NCBI GenBank assembly: GCA_007376385.1
Contig: VMGC01000004.1
Location: 32,001 to 96,000 of the forward strand
Reading direction: 5' to 3'
Source: Parcubacteria group bacterium Gr01-1014_8
GTDB lineage: Bacteria; Patescibacteriota; Minisyncoccia; Phycocordibacterales; UBA2100
DNA: 64,000 bases
The position numbers and the translations under genes were made by a program. The notes beneath the pieces were generated by a model, which saw nothing but the letters and a program-made list of their open reading frames with translations, was not told the DNA's origin and made no database searches. Of the stretch, positions 3,821-49,303 are shown piece by piece; positions within the stretch are counted from its first letter, which is position 1; every line of letters starts with the position of its first letter.

Positions 3821-4993
3821 TCATTCTTCGGATTGTTTTCCCAATCGTTTTCCTGTCCTTTCGCGATTAACTGTTCTGCTATGGATCTTTTCATACGCGA
3901 GCCAAGCTTCCTCCAGGTCGTGCGAAGTAGCTGCAAGTTTAAAAGAGATGGGACGTCCCTGCTCGTCGGTCATTTCATTGAATGCCCGTATGACTTCCGT
4001 ATAGCCGCTAACATCTTTGCGATCACGCGGGTTCTCGTGCCAATGAGCTGCAAATATATCCGAATAGAATCGATTCTGCAGGTCGTGTATCTCATGCCAA
4101 TTGCTTTCCGGTTTATACGTAAAGCCGACATCAAGCATGGAAGCGGTGTAGTCTATTGGACTTTTTGATCCCTTGAGCAGAGAAATATCGGTTGCGCCCT
4201 GTGTTGACAGGCCTTTTGCGGAATCAAACCCAAGATCATGCCCCATTTGAAGAGCCAAAAAAAGCAGTAGCCGCTGGGGCGATACTTTGTACTTGTCTAA
4301 AAAATCATCGCGGATAGTTTTCAGCTCCTTCAGCCGCTCTTCTTTGCCATGACTCTTGTGACCGCTGCCGGTGCGGACTATCCGGAAGACGCGCTCGCCG
4401 GATGGTGTGATTTCCATATCAACGCCAACGCGCCACATCTCTCCGTGGGTGCTCTGGCTGACATTTCGCGGGTCATATCCGATGGCAAGATCGATGGAAA
4501 ATGTTCCTGACCCGCTTTGACCTTTTACAGAAAAATAGTACCCAGGCAGCGAAAGCTGGTTCTTTAATATGCGTCCACGCCATGATGGCTCATCACTCGT
4601 TGCGAACATGTCTTTTCCAAAAAGACCGGACCAAAAATTATAGTTCGCCTTCATGTTCGAGAACATCCTTTCAACAGGTGTGTCCTGGTCAGCCAGATAA
4701 ACCAAATTCCCCCGTCCGAAAAAATTATCCGGCAATTTGTCTTTTAGCCACGCGGCAAACGTCAATGCCTCCTCGAGGTCAGCACGTTTATTAGCCCAAC
4801 CGGCTCTGTTCATGAATAGGTTCAGACCATTCGCAGTAGCAGAATCAATATTTTGTCGTTCGCAGAATGTGCGAATGACGCGCCATCTTTCCTGCGGCGA
4901 TACATCCTGATCCCGCGACTGGAGCTCCGTACTCACGAACGTCCGTACTTGGAGAAGGGTAGCCTCCAATTGCCGTTGTTCCTCAAAAACCAT
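3821..4993 (-). CDS. Hypothetical protein (390 aa), contains a degenerate P-loop-like GQSGSGT segment
   Basis: Long ORF convergent with 3102-3773. No confident family assignment from sequence alone. Confidence 0.55.
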   Translation of the reverse strand: MVFEEQRQLEATLLQVRTFVSTELQSRDQDVSPQERWRVIRTFCERQNIDSATANGLNLFMNRAGWANKRADLEEALTFAAWLKDKLPDNFFGRGNLVYLADQDTPVERMFSNMKANYNFWSGLFGKDMFATSDEPSWRGRILKNQLSLPGYYFSVKGQSGSGTFSIDLAIGYDPRNVSQSTHGEMWRVGVDMEITPSGERVFRIVRTGSGHKSHGKEERLKELKTIRDDFLDKYKVSPQRLLLFLALQMGHDLGFDSAKGLSTQGATDISLLKGSKSPIDYTASMLDVGFTYKPESNWHEIHDLQNRFYSDIFAAHWHENPRDRKDVSGYTEVIRAFNEMTDEQGRPISFKLAATSHDLEEAWLAYEKIHSRTVNRERTGKRLGKQSEE

Positions 4994-5043: not shown

Positions 5044-7262
<2,219 letters not shown>

Positions 7263-7279
7263 TTCTCATATTTACTTAC

Positions 7280-8170
7280 ATGCGTCCGGCTTTTGTCGTT
7301 GAGTTTGCAACTCCAAAAAAATATCAGCTGAGAGGGTTGTGGTTTGGTCCAAGAAAACCGAAGTGTGCCATCGTGTGGATACATGGTCTCGGTGGTTCAG
7401 CGTTCAGTATGGGCTCGGTTGTTGAGAAATTAGTTAACAAAGACACGGCAGTTCTCACTTTTAATAACCGCGGATTTGAACGGGTTGCTGAAATAAAAAG
7501 AAAAATCGGCAAGAAAACAACATGGACGCGAGCGGGAGCCGCGCACGAGGTTTTTACGGATTGCCTCGATGATGTGCAAGGGGCCGTGAATGTTGCACGA
7601 AAGAGCGGCGCAAAAAATATCTATGTAGGCGGGCAATCTACAGGCTGCCAAAAATCAATCTATTGGGCGAGTACGGCAAAAGGCGGACAACGAATAAAGG
7701 GAATAATTCTCCTTGCACCAGTATCTGACTATGCCGGTGCGGCAAAGCGGCACGGAAAGAAAAAAATAGAGCGCGGTATCGCGTATGCTCGCCGGTTGAT
7801 CAAACAAGGCCGGAATCACGATTTGCTGCCACCATCTGTATGGTCTGAAGAATTGGATGATGCGCAGCGATTTTTGTCTCTCTATACGCCTGATAGCGTC
7901 GAAGAGATTTTTAGTTATGCGCTTCCCATGAAAGCCCCAAAAGTTCTGAAGTCCGTGAAAGTCCCAATTCTGACGCTGTGGGCGGGAAAAGATGAATATA
8001 CAGACAGGCCAGCGAAAAAAATTGAAGAATGGTTCAAAAAACATGTGAACGGCAACATTCTTACGTTTGCGACCATACAGGGCGCAACGCATGGATTCCG
8101 GAACAAAGAGAAGATAGTTGCACGAATGGTGCAACGATGGATGGCGCACAAGAGCGGGGCCAATTATTAA
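7280..8170 (+). CDS. Alpha/beta-hydrolase fold protein
   Basis: HGLGGS oxyanion-type motif and a GQSTG nucleophile elbow (GxSxG). Start taken at the ATG at 7280 after the ahcY stop. Confidence 0.65.
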   Translation: MRPAFVVEFATPKKYQLRGLWFGPRKPKCAIVWIHGLGGSAFSMGSVVEKLVNKDTAVLTFNNRGFERVAEIKRKIGKKTTWTRAGAAHEVFTDCLDDVQGAVNVARKSGAKNIYVGGQSTGCQKSIYWASTAKGGQRIKGIILLAPVSDYAGAAKRHGKKKIERGIAYARRLIKQGRNHDLLPPSVWSEELDDAQRFLSLYTPDSVEEIFSYALPMKAPKVLKSVKVPILTLWAGKDEYTDRPAKKIEEWFKKHVNGNILTFATIQGATHGFRNKEKIVARMVQRWMAHKSGANY

Positions 8171-8175
8171 TTGCT

Positions 8176-8544
8176 ATGAGTGAAATAGGTGAAAAGAACG
8201 GTGATAAGAACAATGATAAGAACGTTGACAAAGGGCCTGAAGATATCAAGGAAAGTTCACTCGTCGAGATTTTTATAGATGGCAAGGATGAAACTGGCGG
8301 AAAGCAGCCTTCCTTTGTGTACGGAATTGTGACAAACACGGCGGATAAAACACTAGAGGGTCGGCCTATCAGGGTCTGGGTTGCAGGACACAAAAGCAAA
8401 GATTACGCGTGCGCTCCATCAAGTATCAGACCGTGCCTGCCCGCGCGAAGGCGCATTGTTATCGATATGCTCCGACTGCGGCTTTCTGCAGAACCTAATG
8501 AATATGTACAGCAACTCTTAGATAGAGCTGAGGCACGAATGTGA
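8176..8544 (+). CDS. Hypothetical small acidic protein
   Basis: ORF starting at MSEIGEKNGDK immediately after the hydrolase stop. Low-complexity Lys/Asp-rich N-terminus. Confidence 0.35.
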   Translation: MSEIGEKNGDKNNDKNVDKGPEDIKESSLVEIFIDGKDETGGKQPSFVYGIVTNTADKTLEGRPIRVWVAGHKSKDYACAPSSIRPCLPARRRIVIDMLRLRLSAEPNEYVQQLLDRAEARM

Positions 8545-8560
8545 GTCTCTACAAGGCATG

Positions 8561-8696
8561 AAAGGTTTCAAACCCCTGGGCTAGCCCAGGACCCTCGCGA
8601 AAGAGCAGCGCTCTTTCGCGAACTTCCGCGGCCTGTCTGCGTGCATCGCACAGGCAGACAAGCCGCAGGGTTTTAAACCTTTGCTGTCTGCGTCGC
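8561..8696. repeat. Nested palindromic structured element (possible ncRNA or regulatory/terminator module)
   Basis: Outer imperfect inverted repeat AAAGGTTTCAAACCCCTG (8561-8578) ... CAGGGTTTTAAACCTTT (8666-8682). Inner perfect palindromes CCTGGGCTAGCCCAGG (8575-8590) and CGCGAAAGAG-cagc-CTCTTTCGCG (8596-8620). A further hairpin CTGTCTGCGTG...CACAGGCAGACAAG (8633-8662), plus a repeated CTGTCTGCGT at 8684-8693. Confidence 0.4.
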
Positions 8697-8755
8697 TCGG
8701 AAATGAGAAATCTACGCTTTTTCATTTCGCTCGCTATCCTCGACAGATAAATATG

Positions 8756-8764
8756 TGCTAGAAT
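8756..8764 (+). promoter_or_regulatory. Candidate extended -10 promoter element (TGcTAGAAT) upstream of atpB
   Basis: TGNTAnAAT-like extended -10, 11 nt upstream of the atpB ATG. No good -35 box. Confidence 0.25.
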
Positions 8765-8774
8765 CGCGTTTAAT

Positions 8775-9602
8775 ATGGCCATGGAATCGGCAGTGGAGCG
8801 TGCTGGCGAAGCGGCGGGCGCAGCTCACCTGCCTGCCGAAGCCTCGGCGCAGGCAGGCGAAACAGGTATTCACGTCGCTCTTGCCGCTGAACGGCTTGGC
8901 CACTTTCTCGGCATTCCGATAACGAATACGCTTGTTACAAGCCTTGCTGCGATGGGTATTCTCGTCATTCTATCATTTGTGATGCGAGGCCGTTTAAAAC
9001 TCATTCCTGGTAAATTCCAGACATTGCTCGAATACGCGTTCGAATTTGTGTACGACTACGTCGCCGAAACTCTTGAGAGCACCGAAATGGCGAGAAAATT
9101 CTTCCCGCTCCTTATGACAATATTCCTTTTCGTATTTACCGCAAATATTCTTGAATTTATCCCGGGCGTCGGCAGTCTCACGTTTGACCATCACCCGCTT
9201 TTCCGTGGCGCGAATACTGACCTCACAACCCCGCTTGTGCTCGCGTTGGTGTCTTTTTTCGTCATCGAGATAACCGGAATCTTGACGATTGGCATCTGGA
9301 AATACGGAAGTAAGTTCCTTCAGAATCCGCTTACAAATCCAGTCGGATTTGCGGTCGGGCTCATTGAGCTCATCGGCGAACTGGTGAGAGTCGTCTCGCT
9401 ATCGTTCCGGCTTTTCGGCAACATATTTGCCGGTGCGGTTGTTATCAGTGTCGCGACTTATTTCGCGCCGTATGGAGTTCCGGTATTGTTGATGCTGTTC
9501 GAGATATTCATCGGCTTTTTGCAGGCAGCCGTATTTGCGCTTCTCACGCTCTTTTTCATCAAACTCGCTATCGAGGAACCGCACCGCGAAGAAGCGCACT
9601 AA
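8775..9602 (+). CDS. atpB: F0F1 ATP synthase subunit a
   Basis: Multi-TM protein with the conserved SLSFRLFGNIFAG motif carrying the essential Arg. Confidence 0.9.
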   Translation: MAMESAVERAGEAAGAAHLPAEASAQAGETGIHVALAAERLGHFLGIPITNTLVTSLAAMGILVILSFVMRGRLKLIPGKFQTLLEYAFEFVYDYVAETLESTEMARKFFPLLMTIFLFVFTANILEFIPGVGSLTFDHHPLFRGANTDLTTPLVLALVSFFVIEITGILTIGIWKYGSKFLQNPLTNPVGFAVGLIELIGELVRVVSLSFRLFGNIFAGAVVISVATYFAPYGVPVLLMLFEIFIGFLQAAVFALLTLFFIKLAIEEPHREEAH

Positions 9603-9608
9603 GCCGAG

Positions 9609-10112
9609 CTACGGCTTGATAGGAATTTCTTGAAATATGTGTTCTGTACCGCTTGGCGCGAATGCGTAGTCTGCGAAGCGTATCCACGTGGGTCGTATCC
9701 AGATAACAGCAGTCTTTTCAGGGTTCAGTTTGGACACGGGCGCAAAGAAATATGGATTGGCGTTGTATACATCCAAGATCTTGCTCCGTGTGCTTTGCAT
9801 GTCAGCGTCAAGAGAGACGTCTTTTGCCATGCCCTCTATTTGTATTGTTTGCGGTACATCTTCTCGCATGACGGTGAAAGCGACCTGCGGGTGCGCCGAT
9901 AGCGATGCATACTTTCGGCTCGAGGGGAGTGTTAGGAAATACACGTTGAATTCATCGTCGGCATAGTAATGAATGGCACTTGCATGCGGAATGTTGTCGT
10001 GTCCTGCGGTAGCAAGCACGCCCGTTTTGTTACGCTTTAGGAATGCAAGGGCATCGGCTCGTGCCGCCTGGTCGCTCATGGTGCCTATACTACCATTTAA
10101 TACTCTATTCAA
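9609..10112 (-). CDS. Pyridoxamine 5'-phosphate oxidase-like FMN-binding split-barrel protein (general stress protein 26-like)
   Basis: 167 aa with a PNPOx-like split-barrel pattern (GVLATAG..., ..VYFLT...). Encoded antisense between atpB and atpE. Confidence 0.65.
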   Translation of the reverse strand: MNRVLNGSIGTMSDQAARADALAFLKRNKTGVLATAGHDNIPHASAIHYYADDEFNVYFLTLPSSRKYASLSAHPQVAFTVMREDVPQTIQIEGMAKDVSLDADMQSTRSKILDVYNANPYFFAPVSKLNPEKTAVIWIRPTWIRFADYAFAPSGTEHIFQEIPIKP

Positions 10113-10117
10113 AGGGA

Positions 10118-10145
10118 TTGAGACGTTGAAATACTGTGCTATTAT
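10118..10145 (+). promoter_or_regulatory. Candidate sigma70-like promoter (TTGAGA - 16 nt - TATTAT) for the atpE-atpC genes
   Basis: -35 TTGAGA at 10118-10123 and -10 TATTAT at 10140-10145. A GC hairpin CCGCGGC-tt-GCCGCGG lies at about 10236-10251 in the leader. Confidence 0.25.
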
Positions 10146-10282
10146 GCCGGCATTCGCATTTTATTGGCGGCGTAGAGCGAGGAAGGGAAAAGCATTCATT
10201 TTCATTTCCGAGCCGATGAGCCAAGATAGGATCGAATACCCCGCGGCTTGCCGCGGCATGAGTATCCTTTATTAATTACTAG

Positions 10283-10525
<243 letters not shown>

Positions 10526-47887: not shown

Positions 47888-47893
47888 CGTATG

Positions 47894-48029
47894 CCCGCAC
47901 ACCAATGGTGGCATAATGTTTTTGTTGCAAATATACTATCTGACATGTATCCAGATTCGGAAACTCGTACTGCGACTACGGATAATATTCTGAAAACACG
48001 TGGCAACCATGCCACCATTGGTGTGCGGG
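47894..48029. mobile_element. MITE-like element: 21-bp perfect terminal inverted repeats flanking a 94-nt core
   Basis: CCCGCACACCAATGGTGGCAT (47894-47914) is the exact reverse complement of ATGCCACCATTGGTGTGCGGG (48009-48029). It is flanked by (G)TATG on both sides; the right copy supplies the rplI ATG. Confidence 0.55.
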
Positions 48030-48030
48030 T

Positions 48031-48480
48031 ATGAAGGTCATCATGCTTCGTGATGTCGCAGGTGTGGGACAAAAGGGAACCATAGCGCGCGTATCGGATG
48101 GCTATGCCATGAATTTTCTTATTCCTCAAAAATTTGCAGAAATGGCTACAGAAGAGAAGGTCAATGAGACGCATAAACGAAAAGCCGAAGCTGAAGCCAT
48201 GGTGGTGAAGCAGATGGCAGAATGGAAGGAGCAAGCAACACGGCTTGCTAATGCATCAGTGACAGTTCGCATGGAGGCAAATGAAAAGGGACAGCTGTAT
48301 AGTCAGATACCTCACGCCAAAATTCTTGAACGCATATCGAAGGAGCTCGGCATCAACGTTAAGGAGGAATGCCTGGTCGATGTAAGGCCGATAAAATCAC
48401 TCGGCCGTACTGAAATAGACCTTACGCTGGGCGGGAAACGGATCCCATTCACTGTTTTTGTGGAGAGAAAAGAGGATTAA
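48031..48480 (+). CDS. rplI: 50S ribosomal protein L9
   Basis: N-terminal [30 protein letters not shown] matches the L9 N-domain. Confidence 0.9.
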
Positions 48481-49163: not shown

Positions 49164-49303
49164 GAAACATAACGGGGGCAACTGTGCTTCGTACCATAAT
49201 GGTGCCGGTCGGCACCATTATGGTACGCATATAAATCAAAAGGAGACAGAAAATCCCCGAAACAAACACGACAGCTGGTATATCATGGGATATACTTATC
49301 GTC

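Follow-up and report, generated by a model that had tools for sequence, protein, structure and literature searches.

A candidate small hairpin-ended insertion element, present in two copies, at the atp operon of a Candidatus Kaiserbacteria genome

We analysed a 64-kb stretch of DNA (hereafter the window) from a metagenome-assembled genome (MAG) of Candidatus Kaiserbacteria (Patescibacteria), a groundwater bacterium of the candidate phyla radiation (CPR). The subject of this work is a highly structured intergenic segment between a small open reading frame (ORF) and the ATP synthase gene atpB, of which an initial annotation had singled out positions 8561-8696. We describe this structure as the larger part of an insertion, element A, for which a shorter paralogue, element B, was found 1.6 kb away. 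Our preferred explanation, in which we have middling confidence, is that element A is a member of a low-copy family of small, non-coding, hairpin-ended insertion elements. The genes and promoter motifs at the locus are as follows (coordinates are those of the window):

5044-5982, pfkB, a gene near element A
6006-7262, ahcY, a gene near element A
between ahcY and the small ORF, an alpha/beta hydrolase gene
8137-8544, the small ORF, directly before element A
8754..8764, plus strand, extended -10 promoter TGTGCTAGAAT of atpB, of the type TGnTAnnnT, downstream of element A
8775-9602, atpB, with its ATG at 8775
9609-10079, minus strand, a gene of the PNPOx family
10135..10145, plus strand, extended -10 box TGTGCTATTAT of atpE, about 20 nt upstream of element B and kept in the closest relative
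10298-10525, atpE, followed by the rest of the atp operon

Judged by AtpB, the window is most closely related to MAGs of Candidatus Kaiserbacteria and other Patescibacteria. The closest of them (JACRFI010000015, hereafter L002) has an AtpB that is 83% identical, and the search for AtpB homologues returned none closer than this; accordingly, there is no orthologous copy of the element on which covariation could be assessed. The AtpB of the window is also encoded on a metagenome contig in the European Nucleotide Archive (ENA; ERZ27284378 k139_150609). An extended -10 box of the form TGnTAnnnT stands just before the atpB ATG in the window and in 17 of 17 relatives, at a distance of 10 nt in the window and in L002 and of 7-8 nt in the two other relatives for which it was measured. 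From this arrangement we place the predicted start of atpB transcription at about 8771, which would make the mRNA essentially leaderless. With the conserved box only 10 nt from the ATG there is no room for a leader, and element A, which ends at 8746-8750, lies upstream of the atpB promoter and is not part of an atpB leader.

Element A can be divided into two domains, D1 and D2, with the following parts:

8564..8746, minus strand (the strand on which the flanking target reads 5'-TTTAT), element A, the entire insertion relative to L002
8561-8682, domain D1, a four-way junction made of an outer stem around three hairpins
8561..8575, plus strand, 5' arm of the outer stem, AAAGGTTTCAAACCC, pairing with 8668-8682 in the minimum free energy (MFE) and centroid folds
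8668..8682, plus strand, 3' arm of the outer stem, GGGTTTTAAACCTTT
8575..8590, hairpin H1, the perfect palindrome CCTGGGCTAGCCCAGG
8595..8621, hairpin H2, a 12-bp stem TCGCGAAAGAGC/GCTCTTTCGCGA with the loop AGC
8628..8666, hairpin H3, composed of GCGGC/GCCGC, TGTCTGC/GCAGACA and GTGC/GCAC
8633-8642 and 8684-8693, plus strand, the direct repeat CTGTCTGCGT
8684..8746, domain D2, with the closing stem CTGTC (8684-8688) / GACAG (8742-8746)
8700-8728, the inner A/T-rich hairpin of D2, GAAATGAGAAA...TTTTTCATTTC
8747..8751, minus strand, ATAAA, that is TTTAT on the minus strand, directly 5' of element A; a target or a motif like a transposon-adjacent motif (TAM)
8558..8563, minus strand, ATGAAA, that is TTTCAT on the minus strand; the 3' terminal motif of element A, like a transposon-encoded motif (TEM), or an imperfect target duplication

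The outer stem of D1 comprises 14 pairs with one unpaired base on each side. Each of its arms is itself palindromic (GGTTT-N-AAACC), so that the inverted repeat could just as well be described as an 11-mer repeated directly at a distance of 105 nt. Neither the outer arm nor the direct repeat CTGTCTGCGT has further copies in the window outside element A. Within H3, the loop is filled by a 27-nt inner palindrome (8633-8659), and the second copy of CTGTCTGCGT doubles as the 5' side of the closing stem of D2. The initial annotation had described an outer imperfect inverted repeat enclosing three hairpins and a further direct repeat at 8684-8693. All of these are present, with H2 longer than described: its stem is 12 bp around AGC, not 10 bp around cagc.

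Folding confirms that the structured stretch 8561-8682 is real and well beyond chance. For 8545-8774, the MFE and centroid structures of the RNA both show the four-way junction, with an energy of -93 kcal/mol compared with -66 +/- 4.5 for 200 dinucleotide shuffles (z = -6.0, 0/200 as good). In a 140-nt sliding scan of the whole plus strand of the window, 8541-8680 was the strongest outlier (-5.1 sd). The minus strand of the same region folds as well (z = -5.2), as is expected for DNA palindromes, and the fold statistic thus cannot separate RNA structure from DNA structure.

Independent assemblies agree on both copies, so the element is not the artefact of one assembler, and the reading as an assembly artefact was dropped. 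More specifically, a Logan assembly of a different run (SRR8863434) matches 8545-8653 base for base, and element B is reproduced exactly by a second independent assembly. The Logan contigs of the same strain stop at 8653 (within H3) and at 8828 (within the 5' end of atpB), the latter end adjoining the inverted repeat CCTGCCTGCC...GGCGCAGGCAGG, and 175 nt are left unassembled between them. These contig ends could be due to a drop of coverage at the hairpins or to strain heterogeneity at element A.

The comparison with L002 identifies element A as an insertion. The gene order pfkB-ahcY-hydrolase-small ORF-atpB-atpE is common to the window and L002, and the small ORFs of both are homologous up to their C-termini (E = 2e-7). 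From the stop codon of the small ORF to the atpB ATG there are 24 nt in L002 and 230 nt in the window; about 187 nt (8564-8750) are therefore extra, as a lineage-specific insertion. The flanks align on both sides of it (window CAAGGCATGAAA / element / ATAAATATGTGCTAGAATCGCG; L002 CAAGGCTAAAAATGTGCTAGAATCGCG). The sequence of element A was found in none of the 16 other close relatives, whose AtpB proteins are 44-73% identical. A single canonical terminator hairpin stands at the same site in the relatives L003, L006, L011/L012 and L017. At its 3' end, the L002 ORF resembles the interior of element A (AGGCAGAsAAG, GCTGTCT), a similarity that we attribute to chance.

A second, shorter copy lies in the 5' untranslated region (UTR) of atpE. 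Its features are:

10160..10164, plus strand, TTTAT directly 5' of element B; L002 has a single ...GATTTTTAT/TAATTACTAG here
10165..10272, plus strand, element B, inverted relative to element A
10181-10209, hairpin like that of D2
10241-10256, hairpin CCGCGGCTTGCCGCGG, like D1 and corresponding to the base of H3 as a simple hairpin
10268-10272, terminal TTTAT

The two copies are about 72-75% identical over their shared part. A blastn search with the intergenic region as query against the fetched loci aligned 8659-8732 with 10175-10250 on the reverse strand (74% over 78 nt), and the similarity resumes across a 26-nt gap (CCGCGGC...AAGCCGCrGGGT). In a Smith-Waterman comparison of element A with both strands of the window, with A itself masked, the score was 48, whereas the scores of 60 dinucleotide shuffles averaged 30.3 +/- 3.3 and did not exceed 41 (0/60 reach 48). 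Domain D2 is the part best conserved between the copies. The base of H3 (GCGGC/GCCGC) is homologous to the hairpin of B, while H1, H2 and the inner palindrome of H3 are all missing from B. Element B is also an insertion: L002 lacks its ~102-108 nt (window GCATTTTATT / 102 nt / TTTATTAATTACTAG; L002 GATTTTTATTAATTACTAG). A third insertion relative to L002 (region 9603-10130) lies between the two copies and holds the PNPOx gene (9609-10079, minus strand) with an extended -10-like box of its own; in L002, ~30 nt separate atpB from the atpE promoter. Elements A and B and the PNPOx gene thus make three lineage-specific insertions in 1.7 kb of the atp operon.

Both copies share an architecture. Each consists of D1, an outer stem with G+C-rich hairpins (one in B, three in A), and D2, a closing stem with an A/T-rich hairpin; the D2 hairpin has a 7-nt loop and the D1 hairpin a 4-nt loop. 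The closing stem of D2 is 5 bp in both (CTGTC/GACAG in A, TTGGC/GCCAA in B), around the A/T-rich hairpin GGAAATGA(G)AAA. The two D2 helices are offset by one alignment column, and the stems show only that both copies can close the domain, not that two compensatory changes took place. In B, D1 is closed by another pair, AGGAT/ATCCT, and the sequence of A's outer arm is not kept. H1 sits 11 nt from the end of element A, the same spacing as that of the hairpin CCGCGGCTTGCCGCGG in B.

The boundaries of both insertions were defined against the empty sites of L002, namely CACATTTTTA-GCCTTG for A and GATTTTTAT/TAATTAC for B. The junctions of A read CACATATTTAT/CTGTCG...AACCTTTCAT/GCCTTG on the minus strand, with the 3' end also readable as GGTTTGAAACC-TTTCAT/GCCTTG, and those of B read GCATTTTAT/TGGCGG...TATCCTTTAT/TAATTAC on the plus strand, with the 3' end also readable as CATGAGTATCC-TTTAT/TAATTAC. 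Both copies stand directly 3' of TTTAT, a pentanucleotide found at just 0.25-0.37% of positions, and end in TTCAT (A) or TTTAT (B). At the empty sites the target is present once for B and as TTTTA for A. In both copies the first hairpin lies 16-18 nt past TTTAT and the last one ends 11 nt before the terminal TT(C/T)AT. Element B is flanked on both sides by a perfect TTTATT, single in L002, and element A by the imperfect ATGAAA/ATAAAT, an arrangement that also fits a target plus an end motif encoded by the element. No terminal inverted repeats were seen at the boundaries of A or B by direct reading (in B, GGCGGCGTAGAG against the reverse complement GGATACTCATGC), and the outer inverted repeat of A lies inside D1, away from these boundaries.

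These junctions recall a known group. IS200/IS605 elements insert 3' of a 4-5-nt target that is kept in the left flank, carry subterminal hairpins and make no duplication (PMC5934647, PMC10055086), and both TTTAT and TTCAT are documented IS605-family target motifs in Geobacillus (PMC10055086). Palindrome-associated transposable elements (PATEs) are non-autonomous derivatives of IS200/IS605 that are mobilised by the Y1 transposase TnpA (PMC3119063, PMC10055086, PMC5934647). The junctions of A and B may follow the IS200/IS605 pattern without duplication, a reading that needs no mutation to explain A. In B, ATA (10226-10228) 5' of the D1 stem can pair with the TAT of the terminal TTTAT, and in A the corresponding AAA pairs with TTT in the outer stem; by the published rules (PMC5934647) such guide pairing is non-canonical.

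Based on these observations, we propose that the element would have integrated as DNA at TTTAT sites. The likeliest route would be a mechanism that recognises hairpins in single-stranded DNA (HUH/Y1-type, 'peel-and-paste', PATE-like), or else another transposase that duplicates a 5-bp A/T-rich target. The PATE-like single-strand mechanism fits best, but we propose it only tentatively and regard it as doubtful. Copy A would later have been enlarged by nested palindromes (H1, H2 and the inner palindrome of H3) into the present four-way junction. Local copy-and-invert events are suggested by the inner palindrome of H3, one arm of which is a duplicate of the CTGTCTGCGT located 50 nt downstream. 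In its present place element A is probably selfish or neutral DNA. Its likely sole effects would be a very stable structure on the 3' end of read-through transcripts of pfkB-ahcY-hydrolase-small ORF and a spacing of ~200 nt from the atpB promoter.

A broader search for relatives covered the fetched loci and about 93 kb of this genome, made up of the window, 10 kb on its left side (L205) and ~19 kb on its right side (L206, L211). A profile built from A and B and run with nhmmer on 1.35 Mb of loci plus the ~29 kb of additional sequence from the same genome recovered A and B only, and H1, H2, H3 and D2 do not recur in the 93 kb beyond the two copies. A scan of viral contigs with GGTTTMAAACC-N80-110-GGTTTKAAACC gave three unrelated matches. 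Metagenomes were scanned with the pattern GGTTTMAAACCC-N78-108-GGGTTTKAAACC. Because its arms are self-palindromic, it picked up paired copies of GGGCGGGTTTCAAACCCGCCC, a very common hairpin unrelated to the element; none of the matches listed, at more than 120 loci, resembles element A, and the pattern is too poor to be a real test of the element. Very many contigs from soil and marine samples (L085-L204) carry pairs of the palindrome GGGCGGGTTTCAAACCCGCCC (variant GGGAGGGTTTCAAACCCTCCC), spaced ~80-110 nt and sometimes with several pairs on one contig, which suggests an abundant REPIN-like family in unrelated organisms.

The genome does encode an enzyme of the relevant kind. A 240-aa gene like those for REP-associated tyrosine transposases (RAYT; REP, repetitive extragenic palindromic), with a Y1_Tnp domain, lies ~8 kb past the end of the window (L206 616-1338, within the region 558-1380). 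Its protein matches Pfam Y1_Tnp with E = 2.7e-11 and NCBIfam REP_Tyr_transpos with 35 bits, below the cut-off of 80. The hairpin TTGTGCAAGTCTGACTTGCACAA (TTGTGCAAGTC(T/A)GACTTGCACAA) stands on either side of the gene. The protein is single-copy here and its family is spread in Kaiserbacteria/Paceibacterota (296 matches); the gene stands between grpE and dnaK in this genome, L213 and L214 (L212 is too short to tell). The flanking hairpin is present in all relatives examined, nearly unchanged although the protein is only 62-73% identical, and is possibly a clade-wide REP-like hairpin or an operator of the chaperone operon. It also stands just after atpB in L003, another Patescibacteria MAG (4833-4855). 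Elsewhere in the window, a gene for a large serine recombinase (Resolvase, Recombinase and Zn_ribbon_recom domains; ~1187-2740, L001 2413-3966) lies ~6 kb upstream of element A and adjoins SHOCT and DsrE-like genes; this locus may be the remnant of an integrated element.

Several observations weigh against a mobile, hairpin-ended element, and we collect them here. Only two copies, 1.6 kb apart, are known in the ~93 kb, and no dispersed family is thereby established; no homologue was found in the other loci (1.35 Mb in total) with nhmmer, or in plasmids and phages with blastn. A 5-6-bp A/T-rich target duplication, imperfect in A but perfect (TTTATT) in B, would explain the junctions equally well. 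The two end hairpins within one element are unlike each other, in contrast to IP_L/IP_R of IS608, and the homologue in A of the terminal hairpin of B, namely H3, is ~75 nt from the end, not 11 nt. Elements A and B are oppositely oriented on one replichore, the cumulative GC skew being monotonic here, and this is at odds with the strand bias that has been reported for IS200/IS605 elements (PMC5027513). Furthermore, the RAYT-flanking hairpin is dissimilar to both A and B and does not occur in the window. Being single-copy and syntenic, with the same hairpin in relatives, the RAYT-like gene looks like a domesticated RAYT instead of an active IS, and its REPs do not include A and B. Of the three suggestions made by the initial annotation, the REP/MITE-type repeat (MITE, miniature inverted-repeat transposable element) is the one favoured by the evidence: there is a second, diverged and shorter copy (10165-10272) and both copies are precise insertions, but terminal inverted repeats are lacking, the RAYT-flanking hairpin differs, and the copies in ~93 kb number only two.

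The first alternative is that element A works as a structured RNA on the plus strand, as a 3'-UTR stabiliser, as a terminator or insulator of the ahcY cluster that has no U-tract, or as a small RNA. The exceptionally stable fold (z = -6.0, the top outlier of the window) speaks for it, as does the position directly after a stop codon, where L003, L006, L011/L012 and L017 have a simple terminator hairpin. D2 also pairs slightly better on the plus strand, which is the one expected to be transcribed (a G.U pair replaces a mismatch in A, and a 1x1 loop replaces a 2x2 loop in B), and the repeat CTGTCTGCGT permits alternative pairings with GCAGACA. These points are offset by others. The minus strand folds just as well; a consensus scan found no promoter-like site in 8000-9000 and no terminator-like site within element A; no hairpin is followed by a T-run; L002 lacks the element, which is thus not a conserved function of the locus; and B is inverted inside the 5' UTR of another gene, so that A and B share no RNA context. 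No Rfam family fits. At gathering thresholds the whole window contains only a tRNA at 2703-2774, the only one that ARAGORN reported as well, and at E <= 10 the sole match in 8400-8900 is a noise-level 13-bit hit to mir-1788, with noise only around copy B (10080-10320). The small structured non-coding RNA (ncRNA) suggested earlier thus gains no positive evidence from Rfam at E <= 10, from promoter-like sites or from an orthologue in relatives. We consider a functional RNA unlikely; element A is probably not a regulatory RNA.

More specific candidates were rejected. An orphan CRISPR repeat was considered for GTTTCAAACCCCTGGGCTAGCCCAGGAC, which looks like one but is single-copy and outside any array. 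An integron attC site does not fit by its R'/R'' boxes and has no adjacent integrase; a retron msr/msd or a diversity-generating retroelement (DGR) would need a reverse transcriptase, and none is nearby. Hammerhead, twister-sister and other ribozymes gave no Rfam match, and at 8.6 kb the skew does not reverse, which contradicts a replication origin. As a by-product, the palindromes also give rise to a 77-aa ORF on the minus strand (8549-8782), which is not called as a gene.

Alternatively, A and B may owe their existence to purely local replication errors, in which template switching or hairpin-primed synthesis gave an inverted duplicate and the palindromes expanded later, without any transposase. 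The sole two copies are indeed 1.6 kb apart and inverted, both junctions fall in the A/T-rich microhomology TTTAT(T), the inner palindrome of H3 draws on the CTGTCTGCGT located 50 nt downstream, and the genome has other, unrelated long intergenic palindromes at 47891-48032 and 49164-49303. On the other hand, the flanks of the copies agree well with those in L002, yet the copies themselves are only ~72-75% identical to each other, which makes a recent local copy unlikely. Both insertions also end precisely at the same pentanucleotide with hairpins at matching distances, which is not expected of random template switches. We therefore judge this explanation to be quite improbable.

The two other palindromic regions deserve a brief description. 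The first is a 24-nt inverted repeat, ATGCCCGCACACCAATGGTGGCAT (47891-47914 / 48009-48032, 96% complementary), around 94 A/T-rich nt between a 416-aa ORF and an rplI-like gene, with partly palindromic arms (CACCA-A-TGGTG). The second, 49164-49303, between two plus-strand genes, is the second most structured stretch in the window (z = -6.2) and holds a perfect 20-bp hairpin, CTTCGTACCATAATGGTGCC-GGTC-GGCACCATTATGGTACGCA, within a longer stem; it has no Rfam match and no T-run.

A third possibility is an array of palindromic protein-binding sites, putative operators that would regulate the atp promoters at the DNA level. The palindromic 11-mer arms GGTTT-N-AAACC stand 105 bp apart (~10 helical turns), H1 and H2 are perfect palindromes, and both copies adjoin atp promoters. 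Yet GGTTTnAAACC, H1 and H2 are all missing from B, no relative has these palindromes at its atp promoters, no regulator gene is adjacent, and B lies downstream of the atpE transcription start and not at the promoter; operators are accordingly very unlikely. Finally, a cis-regulatory leader (also proposed by the initial annotation) or riboswitch of the ATP synthase operon, which would agree with a highly structured position upstream of atpB on the same strand, is hardly credible, given that the -10 box at 8754-8764, shared by the window and 17 relatives and 10 nt before the ATG in the window, puts the element upstream of the promoter of an effectively leaderless gene, that L002 lacks the element and that no Rfam family matches.

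Returning to the insertion-element explanation, a stronger version of it would hold that A and B are the first recognised hairpin-ended mini-elements of Patescibacteria, without terminal inverted repeats, integrated as single strands 3' of TTTAT, mobilised in trans by a Y1/HUH enzyme (e.g., the conserved RAYT-like protein of the clade) and growing by nested palindromes from the two-hairpin B to the four-way-junction A. Taken as a whole, we think this composite claim rather improbable. Our literature search found no paper on MITE-type elements in Patescibacteria. The sequence of the element is without relatives in the searched data, while its kind, a small palindromic non-coding intergenic insertion, is well known; it would be a modest first for Patescibacteria, two copies in one MAG being a curiosity, and has no bearing on any long-standing open question. 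If true, even very small, streamlined CPR genomes would carry active or recently active non-autonomous insertion elements. Such elements would remodel promoter-proximal intergenic DNA of core operons (A ~20 nt upstream of the inferred atpB start, B in the atpE 5' UTR), and their hairpin content could grow by nesting. Our analysis also gives a warning that a highly structured intergenic stretch in a MAG need not be a new ncRNA, and it yields two precisely bounded insertion junctions and the motif TTTAT, with which other Kaiserbacteria genomes can be searched.

How element A compares with known systems can be summarised as follows. Intrinsic terminators and 3'-UTR stem-loops of relatives occupy the same site, from the last upstream gene to the atpB promoter, and have G+C-rich hairpins as well; they consist of one hairpin and a T-run (L003, L006), whereas element A has four or five hairpins in 187 nt and no T-run. 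Classical bacterial MITEs include Correia elements of Neisseria, ERIC/IRU and RUP. Like these, A and B are ~100-190 nt long, non-coding and intergenic beside promoters, can fold as stable RNA when co-transcribed and have a short A/T-rich flanking repeat readable as a target duplication. Unlike them, A and B lack terminal inverted repeats at their true boundaries (the outer repeat of A is inside D1 and its sequence is not in B), and the interior is made of several independent hairpins instead of one long hairpin.

The REP/REPIN/BIME sequences that go with RAYT (TnpA-REP; PMC8266576) are intergenic and palindromic like A and B; A is mosaic or nested, and this genome encodes a RAYT-like Y1 protein with hairpins of its own. 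However, the RAYT-flanking TTGTGCAAGTCTGACTTGCACAA has no sequence in common with the hairpins of A and B, and the latter are not abundant, with two copies in 93 kb. For PATEs, the differences are that left and right hairpins are not alike in A and B and do not resemble those of an autonomous tnpA-IS of the genome; in the ~93 kb no autonomous IS with matching ends was found and the sole Y1 gene seen has other flanking hairpins. In addition, A and B have opposite orientations on one replichore, are known in two copies, and A carries three extra palindromes. The likeness to PATEs lies in the design of the copies: both are short and non-coding, have no terminal inverted repeats and carry a hairpin domain near each end, with subterminal imperfect palindromes at both ends on the same strand. 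Both stand directly 3' of TTTAT, a target that on this reading is kept in the left flank without duplication and that is present once at the empty site, and both end in a similar motif, TTCAT in A and TTTAT in B.

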